Below are positions 1-38,229 of a stretch of DNA of 39,238 nucleotides, piece by piece (position 1 is the first letter of the stretch; each line of letters begins with the position of its first letter). The stretch is from the NCBI GenBank assembly GCA_013425455.1, contig JACCLI010000047.1, positions 1-39,238 on the forward strand, given 5' to 3'. Origin of the DNA: Candidatus Micrarchaeota archaeon. GTDB taxonomy: Archaea; Micrarchaeota; Micrarchaeia; Anstonellales; Bilamarchaeaceae. Under the pieces are notes generated by a model, which was not told the origin of the DNA, searched no databases, and saw only the letters and a list, made by a program, of their open reading frames with translations. A program made the translations under genes and the position numbers.

Positions 1-131
1 TCAATGAGATAACCATGTTCTCGATAATCTCCATAATCATAATAGCCATAATAACCTACAGCGGAACGAGGGCGATCTCGACCGCGCTGGGCGGGGAGTA
101 CTCCTTCGCCGGGATAACGAGGATGATATGA
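1..131 (+). CDS. 3' end of a membrane protein, paralog 0 of the CedA/VirB6-like array (partial)
   Basis: The frame from nt 3 reads NEITMFSIISIIIIAIITYSGTRAISTALGGEYSFAGITRMI*. This is the same C-terminal helix plus LGG(E/D)...RMI ending as the downstream paralogs. Its TGA overlaps the next ATG (ATGA at 128-131). Confidence 0.8.
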   Translation, partial: NEITMFSIISIIIIAIITYSGTRAISTALGGEYSFAGITRMI

Positions 132-1009
132 TGAGGGGCGCGGCGATTTTCATAATTCTTCTTTCCCTCTCCTCGGCGGGCTGCGGCATACTGGATGATG
201 ATGCGAACCGGGCGTTCGCGGAGGCGATGCCCATAATAGGCGCGGCTATCGCGATCTCCATCGCAATAGCGGCTCTTGCCTACATGGCCGGGAGCTTCAC
301 AAAGGACCCGCACTTGCTCGTTTTCAGCAAGGACCAACTGTTCCACACATTCGTGTCCGTGCTTCTCGTGATGTCCATACAGGGGATATTCTACAGCGTC
401 TGCATGTTCGCAAGCGGGGCCGCGGGAGGGGAGATGCAAAACACCTCGCTCAACTATCTCCGCGAACTGAGGGTGGACGGAAGCCAGATGCTCACGCAGA
501 TAATGAAGAGGTCGATAGAGTACAAGTTCACGGCGGCTTACTACACCGCATACCAGGTCCCCTACATGGGAGGGGAGAGCTACTGGTGGGAGGCATACAA
601 CAACGCCTACGCGCGCCACCTGGAGATATTGTTCGACTTTGTCATGGCAGGGTATGTGAGCGCGGGGGTGCAGTACACCCTCCTGGGGATGCTGCCCCAG
701 ATTGCGCTGGGGGTGATGGTGCCGCTCGGGCTCCTGCTCCGCTGCATACCAAAGGCAAGGGACTCGGGGAACATGGTACTGGCACTCGCGCTCGCCCTTT
801 ATGTCGTCATACCGTTCACATACGCAGTGCACTCCTCCATGCGTGATACCTCGGTGCCATGGTTCACCGGGGCGCTGGACGATTCGGGCGTCTCGTTTGA
901 GAACGCCGCGCTCTACCTGTTCCAGACTGTGTTCCTGCCCAACCTTTCGCTGGTGGTGTTTGCGACCGCGGTTGGCGGGCTGATGAAGGTCGCGAAGGTG
1001 ATCCCATGA
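128..1009 (+). CDS. Polytopic membrane protein, CedA/VirB6-like paralog 1
   Basis: 293 aa with a signal-like N-terminus (SSAGC may be a lipobox). Shares the family motifs ALAYMAGSFTKDPHLLVFSKDQL and PLGLLLRCIPKARDSGNMVLALALALYVVIP. The family name is inferred. Confidence 0.75.
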   Translation: MMRGAAIFIILLSLSSAGCGILDDDANRAFAEAMPIIGAAIAISIAIAALAYMAGSFTKDPHLLVFSKDQLFHTFVSVLLVMSIQGIFYSVCMFASGAAGGEMQNTSLNYLRELRVDGSQMLTQIMKRSIEYKFTAAYYTAYQVPYMGGESYWWEAYNNAYARHLEILFDFVMAGYVSAGVQYTLLGMLPQIALGVMVPLGLLLRCIPKARDSGNMVLALALALYVVIPFTYAVHSSMRDTSVPWFTGALDDSGVSFENAALYLFQTVFLPNLSLVVFATAVGGLMKVAKVIP

Positions 1010-3291
1010 AGGCGGCGCACATATTTGTACTGGCATTGTTCCTTTCGGCGGCCTTTGCGCAGGCCAGCGGGGAGGAAATACTTGTGCAGACACAGGAGCA
1101 TCCAACGCTGCTAGGGAACATAGCGAAGGACTGGCAGATTTACACAGTGGCGGTGCTGCTGCTGATGGCGGCGCTCGTGGCGCTTGCGTATGCCATCGCA
1201 AACTCGTTCTCGCTGCCGGACCTGAAGGCATGGGCGGACGTGGAGCTCGGGGAGATATTCGCCAGCGCGCTCATACTGATTTTCATAATAGCGGCAATAT
1301 CCTTCATAGATGTGAGCGTGGCCGGGACGATAGGGCCCAGCTTCCCGAGTTCCTGCGCAAAGCCTGGCTTCTGCCCCGCTAACATAGCGTCGGATTATCT
1401 TGAGAGCTACATCCGCGCGGCAGGTTCCGCCTACAAGATCACCATGATAAACAGCATAGACGCCGCGAACGACGCGATGGCAGGAAGCACGGTCGGGATA
1501 CAGGACCTCATATACGGATACCTCACATACAGGTTCAGGGACAACCCGCAGGAGATGATACGGGTGGAGATGTACGACCAGGTCCTGCAGAACCTCGCCG
1601 CGGTGCTGAACGCGCTGCTCGCGCAGAAATTCATGCTCCAGTTCATGACATTCAGCGTGGCGCCCATCGCAATATTCCTCGGCATAGTGCTTCGTTCCTT
1701 CTTCCTCACGCGGAAGATGGGGGGGCTGCTGCTGGCGTTCGGGCTCGGTTTCCTGGTGATTTATCCGCTCACATATGCGCTCGCGTGGTACACGCTGGAC
1801 GCGGCCATTTACGGCGCCCAGAAGGGCCCGAGCGGAAAGCTCACGCCCTGCCCCGAGGTGTGCCTGCCTTTCTCAAAAGTGGTGGACCTTTCCAAGACGC
1901 CGCTGGTGGAGGTTCCCATGGACACGGTGCGGGAGGGATTCCACGAGCAGTGCATGACCGAGCTGGAGCGGGACGGTATAGATGAAACTGGGCGCTCGAA
2001 CACGTGCATGAACGATTGCAGGGACAATGTGGACCCCACGGGGCGCTCGGCCAGCTGCATGGACGGCTGCACGGCGGAAATAGACGAAACGGGAAGGATG
2101 GTATCGTGCATGGGCGACTGCACACGCCTCTACCCCTTCAACTGCGAGGGGAGATGCGCGGAAGATTGTACGGCGCGCGGATATGTGGCGCCCGCGGCTG
2201 AGTTCCCGGACCCGGCCACCGTCGCGGCATGGGACGAGTGCATGCTCCCGTGCATGGAAAGCGAGAACTGCGATGCCACCGTGGAGGAGAAGACATTATA
2301 CTGCCAGGAGAACGAATGCCCTCCCGTAATCGGGGAGCTGGCAAGCGGGCTGGAATATTGCCAGTTATACAATTGCGGCGTGCTGGCTGGATATGCGGGG
2401 AACGAAACCGCATATTGCGAGGGCCAGTGCGTCCCGTTGGACGGCTTCGGAGGAAGCCAGGAAGAGTACTGCAACCACGAGACGGACAACATGCTTGCCC
2501 AGCTGGGGAAGGAGGGCGGCGTGGCGGTAGGAAGCGGCGCGGACTACCATGAGTATGGATATTGCCCCGCGGACCCGTGCGGGTTCCCGATCCCATACCA
2601 CAAGAAGGAGTGCCTGGGTTACCGGGGCGTTCCGAACATATGCAACACAAGGCCGTTCGTGGCCGAAGACCCCGCGTATGCGATGATGGACGCGAGCGAG
2701 CTGGTGGACGGGTGCCCCGCGGAATGCAGGACGCTTGCGCCAATGAAGGCGGGGAGCGGATGCTACAACAAGAAGAGCATAAGGCAGGACGACGGCACCT
2801 ACAAGAATTCTACGATATGCCCTTCGCAATGTATGTGGATGACGGCGGGCGGATACAAGGACCCTACCTGCCCCGCCGAGTGCAGCCGGTTCTATCCTGG
2901 CACTCCGCAGGCGCTCTGGGATGCAAAACTTTCCAGCGAGACCTGCGTATACATAATACCTGATGTTGTTTTTGACGAGCCGGACACGTGCTCGCAATGC
3001 GCGTTCGTGGCTGAGAAGGGGCTCACCATGGAGCCCGCGATGATATGGGACTGCACCGCGTTCTGCGGGGCGCCCAGCTCGACCGTGATGGGGCAGGACC
3101 CTGCGTCCATGACAAACAACATAGGCGGGATGCAGGGGCCGACCGATGTGATTGCCGTGAGCAAGCTGATGGTGCCAGCATATGTGCTCCCGTTCTTCTG
3201 CCTCGCGGTCACGCTGATGTTCATCATGACTTTGTCGCCAATGCTTGGCGGGGACATGGACATACCCGGGATGATGAGGATGATACAATGA
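1006..3291 (+). CDS. Polytopic membrane protein, CedA/VirB6-like paralog 2, with a large Cys-rich extracellular insertion
   Basis: 761 aa with a signal peptide. Motifs ALAYAIANSFSLPDLKAWADVEL and LGIVLRSFFLTRKMGGLLLAFGLGFLVIYP. A ~430-aa Cys-rich insert precedes the last TM helix. ATGA overlaps at both ends. Confidence 0.8.
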   Translation: MKAAHIFVLALFLSAAFAQASGEEILVQTQEHPTLLGNIAKDWQIYTVAVLLLMAALVALAYAIANSFSLPDLKAWADVELGEIFASALILIFIIAAISFIDVSVAGTIGPSFPSSCAKPGFCPANIASDYLESYIRAAGSAYKITMINSIDAANDAMAGSTVGIQDLIYGYLTYRFRDNPQEMIRVEMYDQVLQNLAAVLNALLAQKFMLQFMTFSVAPIAIFLGIVLRSFFLTRKMGGLLLAFGLGFLVIYPLTYALAWYTLDAAIYGAQKGPSGKLTPCPEVCLPFSKVVDLSKTPLVEVPMDTVREGFHEQCMTELERDGIDETGRSNTCMNDCRDNVDPTGRSASCMDGCTAEIDETGRMVSCMGDCTRLYPFNCEGRCAEDCTARGYVAPAAEFPDPATVAAWDECMLPCMESENCDATVEEKTLYCQENECPPVIGELASGLEYCQLYNCGVLAGYAGNETAYCEGQCVPLDGFGGSQEEYCNHETDNMLAQLGKEGGVAVGSGADYHEYGYCPADPCGFPIPYHKKECLGYRGVPNICNTRPFVAEDPAYAMMDASELVDGCPAECRTLAPMKAGSGCYNKKSIRQDDGTYKNSTICPSQCMWMTAGGYKDPTCPAECSRFYPGTPQALWDAKLSSETCVYIIPDVVFDEPDTCSQCAFVAEKGLTMEPAMIWDCTAFCGAPSSTVMGQDPASMTNNIGGMQGPTDVIAVSKLMVPAYVLPFFCLAVTLMFIMTLSPMLGGDMDIPGMMRMIQ
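1978..2121 (+). repeat. Three tandem 51-bp (17-aa) coding repeats, (I/V)D(E/P)TGRxxxCMxxC
   Basis: The Asp codons of the units fall at 1981, 2032 and 2083: DETGRSNTCMNDC / DPTGRSASCMDGC / DETGRMVSCMGDC. Confidence 0.85.
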
Positions 3292-5524: not shown

Positions 5525-6532
5525 ATGGCTGAAGAGGATTTGTTCCACTTTGCTTTTTCGGGATGGGGAGCGGGCGGACCCTGGTTCGTCAACTGCCTTC
5601 TCGCCATCATAGTCGTCGCGGTGATAATGGGCACCGTATACGCCATCTCATACGCATTCAATTTCATGAGCTTGAAGAGGTTCGCGGTTTCGGAGTTCTA
5701 CCAGCTCGCGGCCACGGCGGTTCTTGTGATTTTCCTGGTTGCAATCGTGGAGAACGGGCAGGCATTCTTCCTCTCCAAATATGGGGGGACGGTCATCTGC
5801 CAGGGAGGGGAGATAGACAACACGGTTCAGGCGGCCATGTGCCGCACCGAGGAGAGGCTAACGTATTTCGACAAGACGTTCAATTCCATAAAGGACAGCA
5901 GCGAGCTCGCGGATAAGGAGCTGCGTTACTACTCGTCGATGTCGCTTTTCGGCATAATATTCTGGCAGGGGAACTTCGACGCAAGCCTGCACAAATATGT
6001 GGAGACGCAGCACGCAATAGCCTCCAAGCTCGTCTCGCTCATGATTTCGCTGAACAGCCAGATGTTCGTGCTGAAATACATAAAGGAGAACATGCTCGTG
6101 TTCTTCCTTCCGCTCGGGATAGTGCTGAGGACTCTGCACTTCACGAGGGGAATCGGGGGCTTCTTCATAGCCCTTGCGGTGGCGCTGTATTTCATCTACC
6201 CGGGCATGCTCTTCATAATGGACGCGTCCTATGCGCCCCCTCCGCCGCAGGCGCCCTCTTCCATTTCCAACCGGGCGGACCTGTGCAACATACCTGTTTT
6301 TTCGGGAATGTCCCTGGGCGCCACCACCGCGGAGGGGCAGAGCACGAGGAGCGCCGCTTCCATATCAGTGAGCACCTCCAGCCTCGCGGCGTTCGTGTCG
6401 CAGGTGTTCGTAAAACTGTTCTATGACAACATGGTGGCGCTGGCGATTGCGGTGACGATGATGAGGTACGGGACCATGCTGCTGGGCGGGGACAGCAACG
6501 TTTTCCTGCAGATGATGGGGAGGTGGGTGTGA
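5525..6532 (+). CDS. Polytopic membrane protein, CedA/VirB6-like paralog 5
   Basis: 335 aa. Motifs TVYAISYAFNFMSLKRFAVSEF and PLGIVLRTLHFTRGIGGFFIALAVALYFIYP; C-terminus LLGGDSNVFLQMMGRWV. Confidence 0.8.
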   Translation: MAEEDLFHFAFSGWGAGGPWFVNCLLAIIVVAVIMGTVYAISYAFNFMSLKRFAVSEFYQLAATAVLVIFLVAIVENGQAFFLSKYGGTVICQGGEIDNTVQAAMCRTEERLTYFDKTFNSIKDSSELADKELRYYSSMSLFGIIFWQGNFDASLHKYVETQHAIASKLVSLMISLNSQMFVLKYIKENMLVFFLPLGIVLRTLHFTRGIGGFFIALAVALYFIYPGMLFIMDASYAPPPPQAPSSISNRADLCNIPVFSGMSLGATTAEGQSTRSAASISVSTSSLAAFVSQVFVKLFYDNMVALAIAVTMMRYGTMLLGGDSNVFLQMMGRWV

Positions 6533-9500
6533 TGAGGGGCATTTCTGTTGTTCTGGCTTTTGCTTTCGTGTTCGGGGCGCTCATGCTCGCGGGATGCGTG
6601 GCTCCGCAGCCATCGTTCAGCAACTGCTGCATGTACGACAACGCGAGCAATGATGAGCGATGCATAACTGCGGACAGGACGGAGTACGATGCGCACGGGT
6701 GCAACATGCTGAACATGACGTGCAACGTAACGCTCGGAGAGGGGGACGACACCGAGCTGCTCCCCATCTGCCCGAAATCCGAGCTTCTGAAATGCAACAG
6801 CAGCTGCGTGGGGATGTTCTGCGGCTCTTTTGAATTTGACCCGCGGCCGCCCATCTCCCTTGATGCGGAAGACATGAACGATTCCCGCGACACCGAGAAC
6901 GCCGACAAGGGCCAGTTCGGAGGGACGAGCAAGGGCGGGGCGAAGGGGCTTTATAACGGAGAGTGCCGGCTGCTCAACATGAGCCCGGCGACCCTGCGCG
7001 CCACCGGGAACACGAACGGGGGCTTCGCGCTCAACAGCTTCAGGTTCGGGGTCGGGGACTCCTTTGCGGAATTTGACGAGGCGAACATGTACTATCCGCT
7101 CACGGATTTCGCCTGCAAGATAAACCAGATGGGGACTATAGACAGGTATGCGAATTATGCGATACCGAATTCGCTAACAGAGGCGGGGACGAGGATTTGT
7201 GCGCCTTCCGGGGACAACAAATGGGTGTGCGTGCCGAGCACCAGCTACTCGGACGTTTTCTTTGAGACATATACATATTTTGACTGCGCCACCAAGTGCC
7301 TCCTGCAATTTTCCGGGGATTTCCCGGGCATAGACCCCAACAGCGCCTACCTCACGGAAAGGAACGGGCAGATGCTGGGGAACCCGTTCGCATACGGGGT
7401 TGCGGCGGATTCGCCCTGGGGAAATCTCATCAACGACAAGGACTACAAGAGCTCGGCTGAGGATACGGCATTTTATGATGGTTATCCCCTCGGGTACAAT
7501 TATTACGGGGCGGATTTCGAGAGGGACGACCGCGTGCTGGGCCCGAACAGGGGGGGCATCGAAGGGCTCCTCGCGGAGAAGGGAAGCGGTGAATTCGGGC
7601 TGCAGAGCGACGTGATGGACTATTATTCGGGCGAAACGGCGGACCTGCCCACCATGAGATGGGACCACCTGCTCGAGAACTTCATAACCGTGGAGAGGGA
7701 GCCGCACAGGATGTATGAATTCCTGCTCACCTACCATTCCGTTTATGCGGACCAGTTCCAGAACGGGCATTATGAAGATAATGGAACCTGGAAGAACGGG
7801 GCGGAGTTCGAATGCACCATGGAGGAGAACGGCTGCCTTTCAGGGTATTGCAACATATTCGATTATTCGCGCGGCGTATGCGTGAACATGGATAATTTAT
7901 CAAAGGACGCGAACTGCGACTGCGTGTATGATTATATTGAAGGGGGGGTGGCCTGCACCGGGAAGAAGCTGTTAAGCTCGCCTTCGTGGGACAGGTACAA
8001 CGACGCGACCTCGAACATAGAGGTGGCGACAACCCTTGCCGCTCCCATAGACCGCGTAGGGGATGGCCCCTACACCCACACATCCATGCCTTCCAAGGGA
8101 AGGACGGTGACGTTCAACCTTGATAGTACGGATTACATAAGCGGACTGGCGGAATCGGACAGGGACGACATAGACAGGTCCTTCCTCGTGATATTCCTTG
8201 GCGGGCAGAACGCCTTCCCGACATACACTGCCTACCAGCCACCCACTGATGACACCGCGGCCCTGTGGAACCAGACGCTCACGATTCCGCAGGTCCTTTC
8301 CCCGGAAAAATGGAGCGGCTGCAGCAGGTATTCGGACTGCGGAAAATTCTATACGACCTTCGTGGACCAGTGCGTGCCTACTTATGAGGAGGACCGGGAG
8401 TTCTACAGGACTAGCTTTGGCGTCTGCTATTCCGGCAGCCCTATGACGACCACTTCATCTTCGATTTTTGGGGGGCTGATTGAGACAAGGGTCCCCTATT
8501 CATACGGGCAGTACCTCAAGCCGGACGGGAGCATAGATGTGGAAAACTGGAACTGCCAGGGGCTCTTCAACTTCGACAAGAAGAAAGTGACTGGAAAGGG
8601 CGACCCTTCAAGGCAGGTCTATTGCTACGCGCGGGACAAGGACGGGAACTGCGAGGCATATTCCACCGCGGCGCTTATGATAAGGGGAAGGGATGTTGAG
8701 TATGAGGACGAGGATAGAAATCTGGTGGAGGGGCAGGCGTTCGGGAAATGCATCCTGGATGGGAGCGGCAACCTGCGCACCAAAACATACGGATATTGCG
8801 ACCAGTGCAGCTTCCTGACAATGGCGAAGGAGAAGGTGGTTGCCCTCCCGGAGAACAAGTTAGACCCGGGCTACCAGGCGTTGCGCGTGGATGGAAGCGC
8901 GCAGAGGAAGGACAATAAGTACTGCCCCTCGCTGATGATAAGCACCATTTATTCCCCGGATGCGGCCTTTGAAATAGAACGAGCCTCGTCTCCGCTTGGG
9001 GAGTGGGAGGGGCAGGGAGTGCACGCTTCGAGCGACGACCCGGAGGATTCGTATTACAGGAGCCAGTGCAGGATGCCGGATGGAAGCGAGGTGGGGATGG
9101 AGGAGGCATGGCCGGATTACCTTCCTAATGCGTATTATCTGAAAACAAAACTGAAGGACTACCTGCAAAGGAACATAATGCCGGTGCTGTTTGCGGATGA
9201 TGACGGATTGTACAGGGCACGCACCACGGACAGGGAGCCATACAAGGACAAGCCGGTGCTGCAGCTGGGCCTTAGCGACCATTTTGAAGCCGTCCAGGCG
9301 GGCACGACCACGAACCCATTGATTGCATCTCTCTGGAAGCGCAACCCCTCCATTTTTGACAAATACGGCCTGCCCGGGGACCAGCCATATGCATACACCG
9401 CACAGGGAACCTATCTTGCGGATTCGGTCATGAACCTCGGGGCCGGAATAATAGTTGTGAAGAACCTGAGCACCGACTTCGTGGAGGGCAGCGACATAGT

Positions 9501-10794
9501 GGCCGGGCTGGAGTGGAGGTCCGGTTCTGTGAGGCTCATGTGCCCGAACTGCATGGTAGCGGTCGCCGCCGGATACAGCGACGAGGGCTCCGGCCCCCAG
9601 ACAAGGATGCGGCTTGTCTCACGGCTCTTCGGATACGGAATTAGATACGGGGCCGGGACGCCGCTTTGGGATGACTATTCATACAACCTATCCTGCGCCA
9701 ACGGGGAGGTCGCGTGCATTTATGAGCGCCTGGATTATGTGGATGTGATTGCTGTGAAATGGGGGTTGGGCGGGCGCAATTCCCATTGTGACATCGAGGA
9801 CGAGCAGGAGAGGTTCGCGGCGATACTCGCGGACGAGATGGAATTCGGCTCCAAGATGCTGCGCAGGTTCGGCAAGCCGGTCGTGGTGACCGACCTCACC
9901 ATAACAAGGCACGAGGGCCTGATTTATGATGAAGGAGTGAGGGACTGCTGGAACGAAACGAGCGCCGCCAAATTTATGGAATACCTCGGCCAGCACACCG
10001 AGGACCTGATAAAGAGCGGGCACATCGGGATTATTTACGGGGACTGGACGTATGACCACTCGAGCGGCACCACCGGCCCCACATATGTAAGGACAAAGGA
10101 GAGCGCGGCTGGTGGATACGTGAGCGGATACAGGGGCTCGTTATATGAGGGGACCCTGCTTGCCTCGAGGGACTTCTCCGGGTATGGAGAGATGACCTCG
10201 CTCATGGAGATACCGGTCAAGGAGAACTGCACCTGCGTCCCCTGCACGTCCACCGACCCGGCGGAGATATGCAATGGAAAATTCGCGGGAAGCGGCGCCC
10301 TCTGCGAATGGGAGGGGGAGCGCGTGATGGTCAAGTGGCCGGACGACTGCATAACCGAAGATGCGTGCATGCCCGGGGAGCAGATGGCCGAATACATGAT
10401 GGACTGCGTGCTTGTGAGCGGAGGGCAGGAGACCGAATTCAGCGTGGACGGGGCGGAGGTCGTCGGGAATCCAGAATTGTACAAGCAGATGATCGCATCA
10501 ATAGAGAATACGGTGGACAGGCCGTGCTTCATGAACAAAACCTACGGCAAGACGCAGATCACAAGGTTCCTTTCCCATCCCCTTCTCTTCAGGAAGGACG
10601 GGAACATGAGCTATACCTGCAATCCGCTCTCCGTGGCGCAGGGGGCAATGTGCGGGCCGCTCCCGAGCTTGGACCTTGAGCAGATGAGATGCACCCTGAG
10701 GATAAAGACCGGATGGCTGACGCCCGGCGGGGTTCCGAGCCCCGGAGGGTTGCCGTCGCTGCCAAGCGGGCCTGGGGGGCCCATCGGAGGATAA
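6532..10794 (+). CDS. Very large Cys-rich, acidic surface lipoprotein, with a possible interrupted TIM-barrel/glycoside-hydrolase-like domain
   Basis: A GGAGGTG RBS and TGATG overlap give ATG 6532. Signal peptide with lipobox LMLAGC; many Cys; FGKPVVVTDL and IGIIYGDW strands; Pro/Gly-rich C-tail. Confidence 0.75.
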   Translation: MRGISVVLAFAFVFGALMLAGCVAPQPSFSNCCMYDNASNDERCITADRTEYDAHGCNMLNMTCNVTLGEGDDTELLPICPKSELLKCNSSCVGMFCGSFEFDPRPPISLDAEDMNDSRDTENADKGQFGGTSKGGAKGLYNGECRLLNMSPATLRATGNTNGGFALNSFRFGVGDSFAEFDEANMYYPLTDFACKINQMGTIDRYANYAIPNSLTEAGTRICAPSGDNKWVCVPSTSYSDVFFETYTYFDCATKCLLQFSGDFPGIDPNSAYLTERNGQMLGNPFAYGVAADSPWGNLINDKDYKSSAEDTAFYDGYPLGYNYYGADFERDDRVLGPNRGGIEGLLAEKGSGEFGLQSDVMDYYSGETADLPTMRWDHLLENFITVEREPHRMYEFLLTYHSVYADQFQNGHYEDNGTWKNGAEFECTMEENGCLSGYCNIFDYSRGVCVNMDNLSKDANCDCVYDYIEGGVACTGKKLLSSPSWDRYNDATSNIEVATTLAAPIDRVGDGPYTHTSMPSKGRTVTFNLDSTDYISGLAESDRDDIDRSFLVIFLGGQNAFPTYTAYQPPTDDTAALWNQTLTIPQVLSPEKWSGCSRYSDCGKFYTTFVDQCVPTYEEDREFYRTSFGVCYSGSPMTTTSSSIFGGLIETRVPYSYGQYLKPDGSIDVENWNCQGLFNFDKKKVTGKGDPSRQVYCYARDKDGNCEAYSTAALMIRGRDVEYEDEDRNLVEGQAFGKCILDGSGNLRTKTYGYCDQCSFLTMAKEKVVALPENKLDPGYQALRVDGSAQRKDNKYCPSLMISTIYSPDAAFEIERASSPLGEWEGQGVHASSDDPEDSYYRSQCRMPDGSEVGMEEAWPDYLPNAYYLKTKLKDYLQRNIMPVLFADDDGLYRARTTDREPYKDKPVLQLGLSDHFEAVQAGTTTNPLIASLWKRNPSIFDKYGLPGDQPYAYTAQGTYLADSVMNLGAGIIVVKNLSTDFVEGSDIVAGLEWRSGSVRLMCPNCMVAVAAGYSDEGSGPQTRMRLVSRLFGYGIRYGAGTPLWDDYSYNLSCANGEVACIYERLDYVDVIAVKWGLGGRNSHCDIEDEQERFAAILADEMEFGSKMLRRFGKPVVVTDLTITRHEGLIYDEGVRDCWNETSAAKFMEYLGQHTEDLIKSGHIGIIYGDWTYDHSSGTTGPTYVRTKESAAGGYVSGYRGSLYEGTLLASRDFSGYGEMTSLMEIPVKENCTCVPCTSTDPAEICNGKFAGSGALCEWEGERVMVKWPDDCITEDACMPGEQMAEYMMDCVLVSGGQETEFSVDGAEVVGNPELYKQMIASIENTVDRPCFMNKTYGKTQITRFLSHPLLFRKDGNMSYTCNPLSVAQGAMCGPLPSLDLEQMRCTLRIKTGWLTPGGVPSPGGLPSLPSGPGGPIGG

Positions 10795-10796
10795 AA

Positions 10797-10802
10797 TTTA
10801 AA
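10797..10802 (+). promoter_or_regulatory. Putative archaeal TATA box for a leaderless transcript
   Basis: TTTAAA lies ~25 nt upstream of ATG 10827 in a 32-bp intergenic gap. Confidence 0.5.
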
Positions 10803-10826
10803 GGTGAGCATATCCATAAGAGACAT

Positions 10827-13800
10827 ATGCGGAAGGCTTTGCTGGCCGTGCTTTTTCTCATTCCAGTACTTTTTTCCATAGTCCCGGATTTGGGCGCAGG
10901 GGCTTATGGCGCTTCCGCGCCGGGCATCTCCAACTCACGGGTCCGCATCGACATAAGCGGGGTGCACCTCATAAATCCGCAGGACGTCTGCCCCTCCTGC
11001 AGCATATTCACAACACAGCCTTTCATGGCTCCCTCCATAAACGAGGAGGAGAAGACCGTTTCCGTGAGCATGGGCGTGATAAACGAGAGCGGAGTGACGG
11101 CGGTGGAGGGGGCGACCCTTTTTGCATATGTACAGAAGGCTGACGGGAGCAACTCAAAAAGATGCAGGATATACACCAATGCGAACGGGAGCGCGAAAAT
11201 AAGCTACAACCCGGTCGACTGCCAGGACGGGTGCACTGTCAAGTTTTTCTTCTGCTGCGCCAACCCCGTCGCGCTCGCCTGCGTGCTGGAGCCCTGCCTA
11301 GGCGAGCCCGTCACCGCGTATAGCGACGTCCCAGCATGCGGCAGTGATGGATACGGGGGAGGGGAATGGCCCTCCAACGCCACGGTGGGTGGGCAGGAGA
11401 TACAGCTATACCCGACCCTAGAAGAGGCGGCGATACCCCCGAGGGCAGTGCTGCCCGGATTTGAATACACTTTTACGCTATGCTTCCCTCTCCTCATGAT
11501 ATTCGGCTTCCTGGGTGCGGCGATGTACGCGTCGGGCAGGGACCCGTTCGCGATGTTTTCATTCTATACCCCAAGGTTCACGCGGGGCATGGAGAGGCCC
11601 ATACAGGGAAGGGGATACACCATCCCGGGCTCTTCAATAATCAATGTCGCGATGAAGGCGACGGATCTAGGGACAGGGAAAACCTCCGCAAATGAGATGT
11701 TCGTTAGTTCGATGGAACAGAGCCCGATGGTCGCAAAAACCAAGGGCGCAGCTGGTGAGTTGGGAGGAGCCAAAGGAACCGCAACTGAAAGAGCAGGTGC
11801 AGGAAGGGCTAGTGCAAGCCAGGAGGAGCTTACAAGCAGGACGTCCGCTGACCGGATGGTTGCCGGGGGTTCCGGCGCAGTCATCGGCCAGAGCATCGGG
11901 GTTTCCGAGAGCATGATGCGCCCCGGCGAGGCAGGCGTTGGCGTGGGAACCGCGCTCCTTGCGCTGCTCGGGATAATGCTGAGGTTCTCAAATGCTCCCT
12001 GGCTCACAGGAGGGCTTTCACAAAGATTGATTGGAATTGCCGATGCATGGCAGGCCGAAAGGGTCTCGGGCTATTTCCAAACGAATGCGGCGCCAATAGC
12101 AGGAAGCATGCACGTTCGGTTTGACTCGGAAGGGAATGTCAGCCAGCTCACATATGTAAGCCCGCAAACCGGTGAAACGGTGACGGTTGAGGGTGTCGAC
12201 AAATGCAGGGCATTCGTAGATTCGGTGAGGAACGGCCTTGCCGCGAATGCCCAGGCGGGCGATAATAATGCGATTGATGGCCTGAACCAGTTCAATGAAC
12301 GGGTTGCGAACCTCCAGCACCCTGTGACCGGGGCGCGGGCAATGCTGATTGCTGAGGGAAGCAGGGAGGGTGGCCCTACTGGGGAGGTTCTTGCTGCAAT
12401 GGCAACGCTTGCAGACCCGAGTTCTTCTCCTGACAAGAGGCGCCAGGCCCTTGAAACTATTGCCAATTCGGACCAGGTTTCTGGGGATGTAAAAATAGCG
12501 GCGTTCGTTGCCGCAAGCGACGGAATGAATTATCAGCAGTTTGCCGCTTTTGTTGGTGCGGAAGGTTCTTCTGCGGCCAGGATATTCGGGGAACTAACTT
12601 CAAATTCTGCGGCGCTAAATGAAAGGCTGGACGGGAAGATTGACGGGAACATGCTCGGCGCGATAGGCGCGGCTGCGGAGAGGCTCGAGCAATTAAATGC
12701 CGGCAGGAGGGAAGGCCAGGCGGACAGCCTCGGCATCGGAACTATTGTCGCAAACATGAGGAGCGATATGGGCGAATGCCGTGGGGGCCCGGAAGTGTTT
12801 GTTTTCAGGAGCGGAACGGAAGATTCAGCCGCCAGGATGGCTGCAATGGGCCTCTCCGGAGCCGCATTGGATATGCGCATAAGCCTTGACGCGTTGGGCC
12901 AACGCACCGCAGAAAACGGCGAGGTAACCGACGGAATCGGCCAACGCCTGATTCTCGGCCATTTGAGTGCTGATGCACGCGCTGAGGTGGAGGCTGCGAT
13001 GGACAGCGAGGGCAGGGTGGACATATCCAAGCTAAGCGGAAATGCGAGAGGAGAATTGGGCAGTGTGATAGAACAACAGGTGAGAGGGGCAATTGTCAGT
13101 GAATACAATGTCGCCTACTCGCAACAACAGGCGACGGATTTCAAGAATGGCAACTCGGGGGAGGCACTTACCCTGAGAGACTTCCAGGAGGCGCTTGGGA
13201 ACTATGCGGCGGCAACACAAAGCTCCTACGAGATCATGAATGCGCAGGTTATGGGCCCTGCAAGGGAGGAGGCGCTCGCACTAATAGAGAGGAATCCGAA
13301 TCCAGTGGACAACCTGGGCAGGCTCACCACGATGGTCCTGCCTGAACAACTGGCAGCAAATGATGTGAGGGCTGTCATGGAGAGGCGGGGGATAGACCCG
13401 GAACTGGCAAGCATCATGGTTGGGATAGCGGGGGCGCAGGCGCAAGTAGGCTTCATTAATGGCCGCTATGAGGAACGTCCTGATGGCCAGAGGGAGTACG
13501 TACCGGGCCTCAGCGAAAGGCTTGGATTGCTGGCCATGGGGCCTACGGAATCCTACGGGCAGAGGGCAGACAATGCATATGCCAGCCTTGCTGAGATAGA
13601 CCGGCAGGTGGCTGAATTCAACGGCGCCATACAGACGCTTGACAATCCAAATGCGAGCCCGGAGGAGAAGGAACACGCGAGAGGGGTGGTCGCTGGGGGT
13701 ATGGAGCCATTTTTGGAGTACAAACGGGCCGAAGCCTCGCAGATTCTCGAAAACCCGGAAGCAAGCCAAGCGGACAAGGAATGGGCAACAAGAATTATGG

Positions 13801-14951
13801 CTTTGGACCCCGCCACCGCATTCACTGATGAGGGGCAGCGGGGGACACTCTGGCAGGAATACAATGCCCATATGGGGGAGCAGAAGGACCAGCAAAGAGC
13901 GGAAATGGAATTTGGAAGAACTAGGGAAAGCATATTTGCATCGGGGCCGCCTCTGGGCCAGCCTTCTAACGAACAGGAGAGGATAGCGGCGCAGGAAAGG
14001 GAAGCCGCCCTCCGGCAGGCGGTCGAGCAGTATACAACCTCCGCTTATTCACAAGCTGAAACCAAGCCAGACTCCGGACAGATTATACAGTTTACCATAT
14101 ACGGGGATCCGAATGCCAGGGAGATGCTCGATGCAGCAAGGCCCAACCTTCCCGCCACGGTCCAGGCGCAGCTTGACACGTTCCTGTCTAATACCGCATC
14201 ACAAGAAGAAAAATCACGTGCCCTGGACGTGCTTGTGCCCGCCCTCGATAATTATTATAGATATGCCGAAAATTCTGCCGATGACCGGCTCACTGCAGCG
14301 GACCGCAGCGAAGCTCAATGGGCAGTACACACTCTTACGACTTCCGAGGACTCCTCCGCCCGCCAACAAGCCGCAGAAAGTCTCCGCGAACTGAGAGGAG
14401 TGTCAGGTGAGGCGCAGCCTGGAATAGACGCGCTGATTGCTACGGCAACCGTGCCGCCTTCGCAGTGGACAGACGAGCAAAGGGCGAATCTCGGAGCTGT
14501 GTTGCCCAAGGTCCAGGAAAGGCTGGATATATATTTCGACACCACTGGCTATGACAGGGCGATTTCAAATCCAGATGGAACGAGGCAGGGGCTCATAAAC
14601 GATTATGCGAACGACAGGCAAAGCGAACTGAATGCGACCCGGGATTGGGCACAACAGGCAGGCACCGCTGCAGCCAGAACAGAGTACGAAACCGCGCAGA
14701 TACAGGTATCCCTTCTGGGAAATGAAGCGATAGACCGCTTTTACCAAAACATGGATGCGAACAGGGAGATTGCGGAAAGGGCCGCAAGGAACGTCACGGA
14801 ACGCGGATCAGAGAGTGTCGGGGCAGAGATTGCGGGAAGAGGCGGCTGGAGCTCCGAATACCAGGCTGCCGACAGCGCGTTTGCAGCAAGAAGGGCTGAA
14901 GAAGAGAGGCGCCGCAGGGAGCAGGGAGGCAGCGAAGGGGGGCAGAGGTAA
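10827..14951 (+). CDS. Large membrane-anchored protein: Cys-rich exterior domain, TM segments and a ~1000-aa Ala/Glu/Gln/Arg-rich helical tail
   Basis: Start at MRKALLAVLF (signal peptide). TM segment FPLLMIFGFLGAAMYASGRDPF; second hydrophobic segment LLALLGIML; repeated (N/D)PxASxEEK-like motifs in the tail. Confidence 0.75.
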   Translation: MRKALLAVLFLIPVLFSIVPDLGAGAYGASAPGISNSRVRIDISGVHLINPQDVCPSCSIFTTQPFMAPSINEEEKTVSVSMGVINESGVTAVEGATLFAYVQKADGSNSKRCRIYTNANGSAKISYNPVDCQDGCTVKFFFCCANPVALACVLEPCLGEPVTAYSDVPACGSDGYGGGEWPSNATVGGQEIQLYPTLEEAAIPPRAVLPGFEYTFTLCFPLLMIFGFLGAAMYASGRDPFAMFSFYTPRFTRGMERPIQGRGYTIPGSSIINVAMKATDLGTGKTSANEMFVSSMEQSPMVAKTKGAAGELGGAKGTATERAGAGRASASQEELTSRTSADRMVAGGSGAVIGQSIGVSESMMRPGEAGVGVGTALLALLGIMLRFSNAPWLTGGLSQRLIGIADAWQAERVSGYFQTNAAPIAGSMHVRFDSEGNVSQLTYVSPQTGETVTVEGVDKCRAFVDSVRNGLAANAQAGDNNAIDGLNQFNERVANLQHPVTGARAMLIAEGSREGGPTGEVLAAMATLADPSSSPDKRRQALETIANSDQVSGDVKIAAFVAASDGMNYQQFAAFVGAEGSSAARIFGELTSNSAALNERLDGKIDGNMLGAIGAAAERLEQLNAGRREGQADSLGIGTIVANMRSDMGECRGGPEVFVFRSGTEDSAARMAAMGLSGAALDMRISLDALGQRTAENGEVTDGIGQRLILGHLSADARAEVEAAMDSEGRVDISKLSGNARGELGSVIEQQVRGAIVSEYNVAYSQQQATDFKNGNSGEALTLRDFQEALGNYAAATQSSYEIMNAQVMGPAREEALALIERNPNPVDNLGRLTTMVLPEQLAANDVRAVMERRGIDPELASIMVGIAGAQAQVGFINGRYEERPDGQREYVPGLSERLGLLAMGPTESYGQRADNAYASLAEIDRQVAEFNGAIQTLDNPNASPEEKEHARGVVAGGMEPFLEYKRAEASQILENPEASQADKEWATRIMALDPATAFTDEGQRGTLWQEYNAHMGEQKDQQRAEMEFGRTRESIFASGPPLGQPSNEQERIAAQEREAALRQAVEQYTTSAYSQAETKPDSGQIIQFTIYGDPNAREMLDAARPNLPATVQAQLDTFLSNTASQEEKSRALDVLVPALDNYYRYAENSADDRLTAADRSEAQWAVHTLTTSEDSSARQQAAESLRELRGVSGEAQPGIDALIATATVPPSQWTDEQRANLGAVLPKVQERLDIYFDTTGYDRAISNPDGTRQGLINDYANDRQSELNATRDWAQQAGTAAARTEYETAQIQVSLLGNEAIDRFYQNMDANREIAERAARNVTERGSESVGAEIAGRGGWSSEYQAADSAFAARRAEEERRRREQGGSEGGQR

Positions 14952-35663: not shown

Positions 35664-36883
35664 ATCCTATGGATTACGATTATGATATCATAATAATAGG
35701 GGGAGGACCCGCGGGGGCTTCCATGGCGAGGATTGCCGCCCAGAACGGAATGAGCGTAATGATTTATGATAAAAGGAAGGAATTGGGCGAGCCGGTGAGG
35801 TGCGGGGAGGGGCTCGGGCAGAGGGAGGTGCTCGCGCAGGGGATAGATTTGCCGAGATGGTGCTTCTCAACGGAAATCCACGGGGCGAAGGTGATTGCGC
35901 CCAATGGGAAGAGCATAACCTGGAAGAGCAAGGATACGAAGGGATGGGTGCTCGAACGAAAAATGTTTGACAAGTGGCTAGTGGAGCTGGCCGTGGAGAA
36001 GGGCGCGAAGGTGAAGACTTATGCCAGGGTTACGGATTTGGTGAAGAAGGACGGGAAAATAGATGGAGTGATGGTCTCGCAATGGGGCAAGGAGCCGTTT
36101 GAGGTCCGGGCGCCACTGGTGGTTTCGGCGGAGGGGATGGAGGCAATCGTTGCCCGTAAGGCGGGGCTGAAGGCCATGTCCACGCTCTATGATGTGGATA
36201 CGTGCTACCAGTATGAGATGAAGCCCTACGACCATGAGAATCTGATAGAACTCTATTTTGGGAACAAGATTGCACCGAGGGGGTACGTATGGATATTCCC
36301 GAAGGACGCGAAGAAGGCGAATGTGGGAATAGGGATAGGCGCGCACCTCACGAACTGGAAAAAAGGAGGGAACGTGGATGGGGCGGACCCCAAAATCCTT
36401 ATGGACAGGTTCATAGAGAACCATCCCCAATTGAAGGATTCCAGCGTATTGCAGGACTTCGGGGGGGTTATTTCGGTCGGGGCGCCGATAGAGTCATTCG
36501 TGAAGGACGGGTTCATGTGCATCGGGACCGCGGCGAAGCAGGTGGACCCCATACACGGGGGCGGGATTGCGCTTGCGATGGAGACGGGCATACTGGCTGC
36601 GGCGATTGCGAAGAAGGCGCATGGGAAGAAGGATTACTCGGAAAAGGCGCTGAAGGAGTATGAGAGCATATGGAGGGCCGGGCCGGGGAAGAAGATGGCG
36701 AAGAGGCTGCTCTTAAGGAAAGTGATGGAGGAAGTGAACGATGATGATTTGAACCATATCTTCAATACCATTACGGATGCGGATTTGCAGAAGGTAATGG
36801 AGGGGAGCTTTGCCGGGCCTGTGGCGAAAGTGGTTGGCGGAAGGCCGCAATTATTGCGTATTCTGAAGGCTCTGATTAGCTAA
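35660..36883 (+). CDS. Geranylgeranyl reductase / digeranylgeranylglycerophospholipid reductase
   Basis: IIGGGPAG, RCGEG, GYVWIFPK, ANVGIG, DPIHGGGI. Confidence 0.92.
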   Translation: MNPMDYDYDIIIIGGGPAGASMARIAAQNGMSVMIYDKRKELGEPVRCGEGLGQREVLAQGIDLPRWCFSTEIHGAKVIAPNGKSITWKSKDTKGWVLERKMFDKWLVELAVEKGAKVKTYARVTDLVKKDGKIDGVMVSQWGKEPFEVRAPLVVSAEGMEAIVARKAGLKAMSTLYDVDTCYQYEMKPYDHENLIELYFGNKIAPRGYVWIFPKDAKKANVGIGIGAHLTNWKKGGNVDGADPKILMDRFIENHPQLKDSSVLQDFGGVISVGAPIESFVKDGFMCIGTAAKQVDPIHGGGIALAMETGILAAAIAKKAHGKKDYSEKALKEYESIWRAGPGKKMAKRLLLRKVMEEVNDDDLNHIFNTITDADLQKVMEGSFAGPVAKVVGGRPQLLRILKALIS

Positions 36884-38229
36884 ATTATCGGGCGGAAGGA
36901 AAGCTCGCCGTTCTTTGCGATGGGCATGGCTGCCCCGTTCTTTCCTGCCAGTTTTACGAAGTACATCGCCATGTCGGCAAGGTCTATCATGAGCTGGCAC
37001 CAGTCCTTTGCATATTCCAAAAGCTGGCCGTCCACCTTGTCCGGGAGCTTCTTCTGCCTACGGATGCGCTTGAGGTCCGCATCGCATTTCTCCCTCATCT
37101 CCTTCATACGCTCTATGCGCTCCACGACCCTTTTCATTATCTCCTGCTTGAAATCCACGGGAAAGCGCCTCACCTCGCGGAGCTCCTGCCAGATGGATGA
37201 GCCAACCACGCCGACGCTGGTGCGTATCCCGAGTGGACCGGACTCTGTCTGACAAACCATTGGGTCGAAGAGGCTGTGGAGGTATGTGCCGTGCCGTTCG
37301 ATGTCCTGGATGGTTGCGACGCCTGGGTTGAGGAGGAAGAATTCCTCGCCCCCGTACCTGGAGGCGAAGCCGCCCGCCTCGGAGCGGAGCCTGGAGCCAA
37401 GTATGCCCATCACCTCGTCAGCGGTGCCATGCCCGTAAGTGTCGTTGAATTCTTTGAAGTCGTCTATGTCGATCATGGACGCCGCGAAGCGCCTTTTTCT
37501 CACTATGCTGGCGATGGCCATCTTAAGGAGCACCTCGTTGAGGAACCGCCTGTTCCAGAGGTTTGTGAGCGGGTCTATGTTCTTGATTTCCTCGTCGCGC
37601 TGGGTATAGAGCTCCTGCCAGATGAGGCGGGCCATTCCAACAAGATAGTCCAGCTGTTCGTTGTCCCTGCTCCCCGAAGGGTTCACGAAGCCCTCCACCG
37701 CGACCATGTGGGTGACATCCATGTGGCCCCTGGACATGTTTCCGAGGGGTATCCAGCAGCCGCAGTTGCCGAATGAGGTGGTCAGGCTTTCCTCCCGCAT
37801 GTTGAAGTCGTCCGGGTCGGAGGTAAATAAGGATATCTTGTCCCCGTTGAAAATTACGGTCTGGCCGCCCAGTATCTTGCCTATGCGGGGGTCCGTGCGC
37901 ATCATGAACTCCCTCTGCTCGCTTCCGATGGGGGTGCCGCCCACCCGCGACATCAGGCGGAGGCCGTCGTCCTTCGCCTCCCAGAGCTCCACCTTGGAGA
38001 GGTTCGGGTCGGTGGTGAGAATCTCCTTCATTATGAAGTTGCGCCGGTTGTGCCTGTGCCCCACCATGTGGAGCCTGCGTACGACTGAGCTCTGGGAGCG
38101 GAAAAAGGATGTTTGGGGGTCCTTCAGGCCGAATTCCTTGGGGGCTGGCGGAGGCTGGGATGCCCTTGTATCCTGGCAACCCGGGCTGGGTGGAGCTGAA
38201 AGTCTGGATTTATCATTCATACTATTCAA
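36880..38229 (-). CDS. GAF-like plus GGDEF (GGEEF) diguanylate-cyclase-domain protein
   Basis: DPLTNLWNRR, MIDIDDFKEFNDTYGHGTAD, RYGGEEF, TSVGV, ADMAMYFVKLAGKN. Confidence 0.9.
   Translation of the reverse strand: MNSMNDKSRLSAPPSPGCQDTRASQPPPAPKEFGLKDPQTSFFRSQSSVVRRLHMVGHRHNRRNFIMKEILTTDPNLSKVELWEAKDDGLRLMSRVGGTPIGSEQREFMMRTDPRIGKILGGQTVIFNGDKISLFTSDPDDFNMREESLTTSFGNCGCWIPLGNMSRGHMDVTHMVAVEGFVNPSGSRDNEQLDYLVGMARLIWQELYTQRDEEIKNIDPLTNLWNRRFLNEVLLKMAIASIVRKRRFAASMIDIDDFKEFNDTYGHGTADEVMGILGSRLRSEAGGFASRYGGEEFFLLNPGVATIQDIERHGTYLHSLFDPMVCQTESGPLGIRTSVGVVGSSIWQELREVRRFPVDFKQEIMKRVVERIERMKEMREKCDADLKRIRRQKKLPDKVDGQLLEYAKDWCQLMIDLADMAMYFVKLAGKNGAAMPIAKNGELSFRPII

Follow-up and report, generated by a model that had tools for sequence, protein, structure and literature searches.

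Pairs of antiparallel helices stapled by disulfide bonds between C-x3-C motifs are known from plant and mitochondrial proteins. In the plant α-hairpinins, the pattern C1X3C2XnC3X3C4 folds into two antiparallel helices with C1–C4 and C2–C3 bonds (PMC7191063), and the small Tim proteins of the twin-CX3C type form a helix-loop-helix with one outer and one inner disulfide and can bind Zn in the reduced form (PMC3759932). Here we analyse a stretch of 39,238 nucleotides of a Candidatus Micrarchaeota genome (contig JACCLI010000047.1, positions 1 to 39,238; hereafter the window), in which one of several tandemly encoded membrane proteins, paralog 2, carries a ladder of 20 cysteine (Cys) residues arranged in two mirror-symmetric arms. 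We propose, with a probability of roughly 0.65, that residues 316–489 of this protein fold outside the cell into a rod-like helical hairpin whose arms are joined by nested, rung-by-rung cross-links, a reading drawn from ortholog comparison and structural models.

As we read it, the ladder is a new variant of the CX3C-stapled helical hairpin, nested and multi-rung, and sits on a previously undescribed Micrarchaeota envelope protein. Each rung with two Cys on either arm would follow the bonding logic of the α-hairpinins. Yet α-hairpinins are single-rung, four-Cys, secreted peptides, whereas the ladder nests five rungs, with a range of 3 to 6 among its relatives, includes rungs with one or with three Cys on each arm, uses return-arm spacings of 4 or 5 besides 3, and is embedded in a 761-residue archaeal membrane protein that has no sequence relation to them by Pfam. 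Small Tim and CHCH (twin CX9C) proteins resemble it as helix-loop-helix units held together by two disulfides, one outer and one inner; theirs, however, is a one-rung device of the mitochondrial intermembrane space, oxidised by Mia40/Erv1, whereas the ladder shows no Pfam homology to these families and no Cys-oxidising partner has been recognised in its genome. Scans for membership in the small Tim, CHCH or α-hairpinin families returned 0 Pfam families at E≤0.01 for the 761-residue protein and 0 NCBIfam families.

Saposins offer a further point of comparison. Their nested disulfides link the first and last helices, and like the ladder in the form proposed here they are helical domains closed by such bonds; a weak row of the fold comparison points in their direction (3rfi_A, Z 4.3, 74 residues aligned, model residues 59–147). 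Saposins, however, bind lipid and are compact, with four or five helices bundled together and three bonds, and a Z of 4.3 amounts to no match.

For the host protein, the closest described systems are VirB6/TrwI and CedA/CedE, of which CedE is a VirB6-like paralog of CedA with five transmembrane (TM) helices (PMC11868833). The Micrarchaeota protein is like these in its predicted five-helix polytopic membrane core and large outside loop; unlike them, it belongs to a set of six tandem paralogs accompanied by two giant proteins.

Results

A mirror-symmetric Cys ladder in paralog 2

The ladder host contains 41 Cys, exactly 20 of which lie in residues 316–489 (bases 1951–2472, the first opening the codon of Cys316 and the last ending that of Cys489) in groups of 1-2-2-2-3 / 3-2-2-2-1, where the slash stands for the tip between the arms. 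Their positions are 316, 334/338, 351/355, 368/372 and 380/384/388 on the outbound arm, with the motifs C, CMNDC, CMDGC, CMGDC and CEGRCAEDC, and 412/416/422, 433/438, 452/457, 471/475 and 489 on the return arm, with the motifs CMLPCMESENC, CQENEC, CQLYNC, CEGQC and C. The original prediction, made from the sequence alone, had described this 20-Cys pattern, and its positions and all the motifs it quoted are exact; it had also matched 17-residue outbound repeats with return repeats of about 17–19 residues. The Cys-to-Cys periods are 18, 17 and 17 outbound and 19, 19 and 18 on return.

The outbound arm is built of three 17-residue units with the consensus x-[IV]-D-x-T-G-R-x-x-x-C-M-x-x-C-x-x, and the return arm starts with W-x-x-C-x3-C-x5-C, each later group being preceded by Tyr. 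When the arms are compared as CX3C elements, the outbound CMNDC, CMDGC and CMGDC stand opposite the return motifs CEGQC, with three intervening residues, and CQLYNC and CQENEC, with four, so that the return-arm spacing is 3 in one of the rungs with two Cys per arm and 4 in two. The segment is acidic (isoelectric point 4.05), and its Cys content of 11.5% compares with 1.36% over 579 long open reading frames (ORFs) of the genome. Tandem Repeats Finder reported 0 arrays in bases 1800–2700, and as DNA the repeats are therefore old.

Taken one step further on either side, the group sizes still form a palindrome, 2-1-2-2-2-3 / 3-2-2-2-1-2, the added step being the invariant pairs CPEVC (residues 282–286; 1849–1863) and CPADPC (residues 520–525; 2563–2580) that flank the ladder-bearing insertion; these two pairs may lie opposite one another at the rod's base. 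Elsewhere in the family, two distant members of about 1345 residues, P0116 and P0125, show a 20-group palindromic pattern with a shuffle p of about 0.001, made mostly of single Cys with irregular gaps, which may be chance after 137 tests or the hairpin principle recurring elsewhere in the family. A palindrome statistic over the whole protein was set aside as the main argument, being weak per sequence and flagging the irregular P0116 and P0125.

Cys numbers match between the arms of all ladder orthologs

The ladder set comprises 15 sequences: the query, 12 full-length orthologs (found among 16 homologs) and two proteins from genome searches. They fall into five architectures with 12 to 24 Cys and 3 to 6 rungs, namely 1-2-2-2-3 / 3-2-2-2-1 (n=5; the query and P0001–P0004), 1-2-3 / 3-2-1 (n=4; P0006, P0009, L013 and L014), 1-2-3-2-2-2 / 2-2-2-3-2-1 (n=2; P0005 and P0007), 1-1-2-3-3 / 3-3-2-1-1 (n=3; P0008, P0010 and P0011) and 1-2-3-3 / 3-3-2-1 (n=1; P0012). 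The number of Cys per arm is equal in 15 of 15, and all 20 Cys are invariant in the orthologs of the same architecture (5/5), down to 38% identity. Groups of odd size, with 1 or 3 Cys, could not be satisfied by local bonds, and they always recur at the mirrored place. Under a mechanical mirror rule that compares Cys spacings as either ≤6 or >6, nine of the 15 are exact mirrors, and two more become so once a trailing C-x4/5-C outside the ladder is set aside, giving 11/15.

Changes between the architectures can be read from the sequences. The 1-1-2-3-3 form equals the 1-2-3-3 form with one extra single Cys on each arm, and the six-rung form carries six extra C-x3-C groups in the tip, with the conserved outbound triple on one side of them and the conserved W-x-x-C-x3-C-x5-C return triple on the other, as expected if an entire sub-hairpin had been inserted there. 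In a tree that used the membrane core together with the last 200 residues of the protein and excluded the ladder, the 15 ladder rows form one clade (Shimodaira–Hasegawa-like approximate likelihood ratio test support 98). On this tree, parsimony places six architecture changes, the minimum for five states being 4, and the arms are matched after each. The four 1-2-3 / 3-2-1 rows are rejected as a single clade by the approximately unbiased test (p 3e-51), and a clade of the two six-rung rows is not rejected (p 0.09). The gain or loss of repeats in pairs, as originally predicted, is thus seen throughout the 15 orthologs and their inferred history, and at the level of sequence we regard this co-variation of the arms as strong evidence, above the pattern of any single sequence.

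Structure predictions of the ladder

AlphaFold2 (AF2) modelling of the full-length protein with 72 mixed family sequences gave a mean predicted local distance difference test score (pLDDT) of 80.8, with a confident membrane core, tip rung and conserved Cys module; in the latter, the pLDDT by 10-residue blocks is mostly 82–97, with a dip near residues 689–696. Residues 295–506, modelled with five same-architecture sequences, reached a mean pLDDT of 88.8 and a predicted template modelling score of 0.64, with no stretch below 50. This ladder model (in which model residue plus 294 gives the residue number) has nine helices, at 305–323, 332–341, 349–357 and 366–390 on the outbound side and 403–419, 426–437, 448–456, 467–474 and 485–500 on the return side. 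Of its 20 Cys, 16 lie inside helices and four directly after return-arm helices.

Structural comparison bears on how the arms are packed. Several VIA-align rows (1tfe_A, 5w7g_B, 2lo0_B, 7wmp_A and 4itr_A) align 42–46 residues spanning model positions 5–210 to contiguous stretches of 42–47 residues in solved chains; since they join the two ends of the model to a contiguous stretch, the first and last helices are packed side by side in the model. Further rows cover model residues 69–130, 62–126 and 63–148, that is, the tip hairpin. No solved structure resembling the whole ladder was found, the best VIA-align Z being 5.0 among 48,161 chains and Foldseek returning 0 matches at E≤0.001, and a search of the ESM Atlas, which contains no model of this protein, gave no usable match for residues 295–506. 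Readings of the ladder model as saposin-like or Rad50 hook-like were discarded, the fold matches being too weak.

The arms were also presented as separate chains (residues 302–392 and 401–502) to ESMFold2, with our own alignment and three controls. They docked with scores of 0.55, 0.56 and 0.55 against 0.00 in all three controls, with at least 99% contact agreement between runs and a partner pLDDT of at least 88. Of 157 solved complexes, 116 attain the docking mark, as do 2 of 215 mismatched pairs, counts that are only roughly valid with an alignment of one's own; among those that attain it, a score of at most 0.60 is found in only 18 of the 157 solved complexes and in both of the mismatched pairs. 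The prior was also high, because each 'chain' is one half of the same polypeptide. Recall of a known complex is unlikely, because no similar solved structure was found. Both the AF2 ladder model and the ESMFold2 docking thus predict a helical hairpin with its arms packed together, in line with the hairpin that the original prediction had put forward.

Distribution of the ladder

The insertion that carries the ladder is bordered by Cys that are invariant among 72 family sequences (C282, C286 and C520). Two genomes of the same genus (G095 and G099) and one of another genus (G105) have unrelated, Cys-poor sequence at this position and no ladder, and G099 nevertheless keeps the rest of the operon. 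In an order-wide genome search, 32 of 176 genomes gave matches at E≤1e-40; ladders were seen only in the genome of the window and in five of seven other genomes of its genus. A homolog search with residues 295–506 alone returned only the two closest orthologs. Sequence comparison shows the ladder to be an insertion at the level of the genus, placed in the ectodomain of a single member of the six paralogs. A metagenome scan yielded 32 loci, three with a ladder of a type already seen and three that end before the ladder position, and no additional architecture among them.

Host protein and operon

The source genome (986 kb in 87 contigs, 86% complete) belongs by the names of its homologs in public sources to Micrarchaeota, Candidatus Bilamarchaeaceae. 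The operon consists of six tandem paralogs, five of them complete in the window and the most upstream (par0) truncated by the contig start, followed by two ORFs of about 1420 codons (Table 1). The name 'paralog 2' is right for the window, with the remnant of par0 as a further paralog upstream. The same gene order is found in G094, G096, G098 and G099.

Table 1. Features of the ladder host and neighbouring genes in the window (aa, amino acids).
Feature	Position	Strand	Remarks
par0 (upstream sixth paralog), last 42 codons and stop	3..131	+	frame-3 translation fits the par0 C-terminus at the syntenic G094 locus
Paralog 1, 293-aa polytopic membrane protein	128..1009	+	family loop motif LRCIPKARDSGN; 69–82% identity to syntenic G096 and G094 genes
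Paralog 2 (ladder host), 761 aa	1006..3291	+	signal-like N-terminus; ectodomain about 270–714 with 38 Cys
Clade-specific insertion with ladder, residues 287–519	1864..2562	+	between invariant CPEVC and the family-wide Cys module
Outbound arm, residues 316–388	1951..2169	+	Cys groups 1-2-2-2-3
Cys-free tip, 23 residues, 389–411, TARGYVAPAAEFPDPATVAAWDE	2170..2238	+	no Cys between the arms
Return arm, residues 412–489	2239..2472	+	Cys groups 3-2-2-2-1
Family-wide Cys module of ectodomain, residues 520–700, CPxxC motifs	2563..3105	+	Cys invariant or near-invariant in 72 sequences
Paralog 3, 358 aa	3282..4358	+	weak NCBIfam CedE match
Paralog 4, 386 aa	4364..5524	+	Atlas look-alike: CedA1-domain cluster at 0.90, lead only
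Paralog 5, 335 aa	5525..6532	+	ORF
Giant Cys-rich protein A, 1423 aa, lipobox-like N-terminus	6523..10794	+	53 Cys from Met at 6532
Giant protein B, 1420-aa ORF	10689..14951	+	overlaps protein A by 106 nt
449-aa ORF with GGDEF diguanylate-cyclase domain	36880..38229	−	PF00990, E 2.3e-22

The paralogs have in common a five-helix core and a basic loop, L-R-x-h-x-x-T/M-R-x-x-G-G. Paralog 2 has hydrophobic spans at about 42–71, 76–111 and 209–261 and a last TM helix at 715–749, and two of the hydrophobic spans are separated by a loop rich in Arg and Lys, LRSFFLTRKMGG. The ladder would lie outside the cell, because this basic loop is placed inside and the final TM helix closes the ectodomain. The protein family numbers 686 members at E≤0.001 in a library clustered at 50%, with ectodomains of up to 128 Cys. 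A literature search, with supplements outside its range, found no paper describing this Micrarchaeota family, operon or ladder.

The evidence on what the paralogs might be related to consists of leads. VIA-align placed the host model on TrwI (7o3v_F) with a Z of 7.3 and a root mean square deviation (rmsd) of 5.3 Å over 228 of 261 residues, covering model residues 34–743; this row has the widest coverage among single-domain rows, and its Z is tied with those of short helical matches, in the noise range of the tool for helical proteins. Foldseek listed 8rtd_L at rank 24 (E 1.3, with 264 columns at an rmsd of 7.1). Among the paralogs, only paralog 3 had a match to NCBIfam CedE (E 0.0021), whose 17.9 bits fall far short of the cut-off of 400, and the cluster resembling paralog 4 in the Atlas at 0.90 is partly annotated as CedA1. 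No Pfam family was assigned to any of the five complete paralogs, neither Pfam nor NCBIfam matched paralog 1 or proteins A and B, and nothing usable came from either database for the seven cluster proteins; a profile of the 72 sequences had 0 hits at E≤10 among PDB sequences. These weak leads point to a VirB6/CedA-like family, and none of them reaches the threshold of membership. The best explanation of the host operon is that it is a conserved eight-gene envelope operon of Micrarchaeota.

As for the other genes, protein B probably starts further downstream than its listed ORF, because 106 nt (10689..10794) are shared between the ORFs of proteins A and B as listed. Protein A has exactly 53 Cys both in the window and in 4/4 syntenic relatives, at 37–75% identity, so that the constraint on its Cys framework equals that on the ladder. 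The same membrane family recurs in another tandem set of six ORFs at G000:C26:13060-19705 (−), all Cys-poor with 1–5 Cys each, four of the six having matched the query protein and the other two having been assigned from their sequences; the set adjoins a 740-codon ORF without a Pfam hit and a 322-codon ORF. A single further paralog at G000:C53:26620-27549 (+) precedes an ORF with TM and coiled-coil segments that is truncated by the contig end. The genome is rich in Cys-rich ORFs despite having no recognised gene of an oxidising pathway. Cyclic di-GMP cyclases are uncommon in archaea, and the GGDEF ORF near the far end of the window could be a transferred gene or an issue of contig binning.

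Discussion

The architecture that we propose for the ladder is a stack of stapled helices. The short outbound helices, each carrying C-x3-C (C-x3-C-x3-C at the top), would run antiparallel to return helices with the matching number of Cys, and the Cys would pair in nested order as 388–412, 384–416, 380–422, 372–433, 368–438, 355–452, 351–457, 338–471, 334–475 and 316–489. Each rung with two Cys per arm would then be a twin-CX3C or α-hairpinin device (C1–C4, C2–C3), stacked five deep, the rung with three Cys per arm capping the rod next to the tip and a single bond, 316–489, closing its base, to give ten cross-links in 174 residues. Such a rod may change its length in evolution when both arms gain or lose rungs in step, or when a whole sub-hairpin is inserted into the tip, and would form a stiff, protease-resistant appendage that projects from the conserved ectodomain module and varies in length between close species. 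We infer the pair list, the disulfide chemistry, the rigidity and a protruding strut of tunable length from the Cys pattern and the models.

Several observations weigh against this proposal. In paralog 2 alone, an equally long palindrome arises in 5.85% of 2000 shuffles of the Cys-group order, and the palindrome of the single sequence thus goes beyond chance only weakly. The spacing mirror is broken at one position in four of the 15 orthologs (P0004, P0008, P0010 and P0011), where one single Cys of the return arm comes only 4 residues after a pair, the Cys numbers of the arms still being equal; in P0004, a distance of only 4 residues separates the closing single Cys from the next one, compared with 17 on the other arm. 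The full-length AF2 model falls below a pLDDT of 50 at residues 329–365 and 439–482, the confident ladder model rests on five sequences only, and the verdict of the docking tool itself is 'weak support'. As to oxidation, the genome, at 86% completeness, has no match to VKOR or to Thioredoxin_4 (DsbA-like), and offers one small thioredoxin (a 119-residue frame) and DsbD_TM below the cut-off only. As to the host, neither the window nor the 16 kb upstream in G099 contains a recognisable gene for a VirB4-like ATPase or a pilin; ATPases of the DUF87 type lie on other contigs (C34, C3 and C50) of this fragmented assembly of 87 contigs.

Some of these points also favour other explanations, of which the one closest to our proposal keeps the hairpin and replaces the disulfides by Zn or Fe-S, with Cys ligands from both arms. 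Co-variation and models are equally compatible with S–S and S–metal–S bridges, no VKOR or DsbA-like gene turned up in the incomplete genome, and reduced small Tim twin-CX3C proteins bind Zn 1:1 (PMC3759932). Nevertheless, every one of the 15 orthologs has a rung with one Cys per arm (three of them have two such rungs), and two thiolates cannot make a tetrahedral site; the rungs with three Cys per arm would supply six ligands, an awkward number, and the ladder is predicted to be extracellular. The rungs with one Cys per arm speak for disulfides over metal, and we regard bridging by metal as unlikely. Less probable still is a ladder formed between copies, in which the arms of different molecules pair or swap to build a longer oligomeric stalk: an antiparallel dimer would keep the mirror symmetry and the co-variation equally well, and the paralogs probably oligomerise if the VirB6-like lead holds, but the AF2 monomer closes on itself with high confidence, and the short Cys-free tip (20–23 residues) with its invariant G, P and W resembles a turn.

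The two remaining explanations dispense with the hairpin or with the symmetry itself. Local redox pairs of the C-x-x-C type are common in proteins, and the ladder might accordingly be read as beads on a string, with bonds or redox pairs within each C-x3-C; but this would leave a Cys unpaired in every odd group, it does not sit with arms that co-vary throughout the ladder set or with separated arms that dock at 0.55 against 0.00 in controls, and the Cys are placed at i and i+4 on the predicted helices, an arrangement that is generally regarded as a poor one for a disulfide within a helix. We consider such local bonding very improbable. That the symmetry is a by-product of a Cys-rich, repeat-rich sequence draws on the shuffle p of about 0.06 for this sequence alone and on palindromic runs of at least 8 groups in 30 of 137 other family members with at least 6 Cys groups. 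Set against this are five distinct outbound arms, each with its own mirror image, which random pairing would match in all five cases 1 time in 120, and 20 Cys that stay invariant at 38% identity, and chance is in our view hardly credible as an explanation. The hairpin rod with nested disulfide rungs is the reading that we prefer.

Only G392, P396 and W409 of the tip are invariant across 13 sequences, and in two orthologs, those of the six-rung form, a further sub-hairpin takes the place of the tip. Because these two have swapped the tip for a sub-hairpin, the tip suggests a structural cap more than a ligand loop; the idea of a conserved ligand site displayed there was not supported, with so few invariant residues and a tip that is replaced in two orthologs. 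The original prediction had called the element a spacer or a probe that would present its tip loop to a partner cell. Of the two words, 'spacer' fits poorly: both ends of a hairpin return to the same point, and the ladder would therefore be an appendage and not a linker. It is tempting to extend this to a new kind of modular, protease-proof and species-tuned strut of nested disulfide rungs, mounted on a hetero-oligomeric VirB6-like envelope machine with which these host-dependent archaea would reach or bridge to a partner cell, but this wider picture is tentative and, on present evidence, doubtful.

The ladder nevertheless poses a distinct evolutionary problem. The number of rungs changes on two arms about 100 residues apart and yet stays matched, although the intermediates would carry unpaired Cys, which makes the ladder a natural case for studying how compensated changes arise. 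It would also extend the two-bond CX3C hairpin of mitochondrial and plant proteins to a ladder of ten bonds, a possible template for rigid rods of programmable length. For the Micrarchaeota themselves, the ladder marks what appears to be a fast-evolving, exposed part of a conserved and so far undescribed envelope operon.

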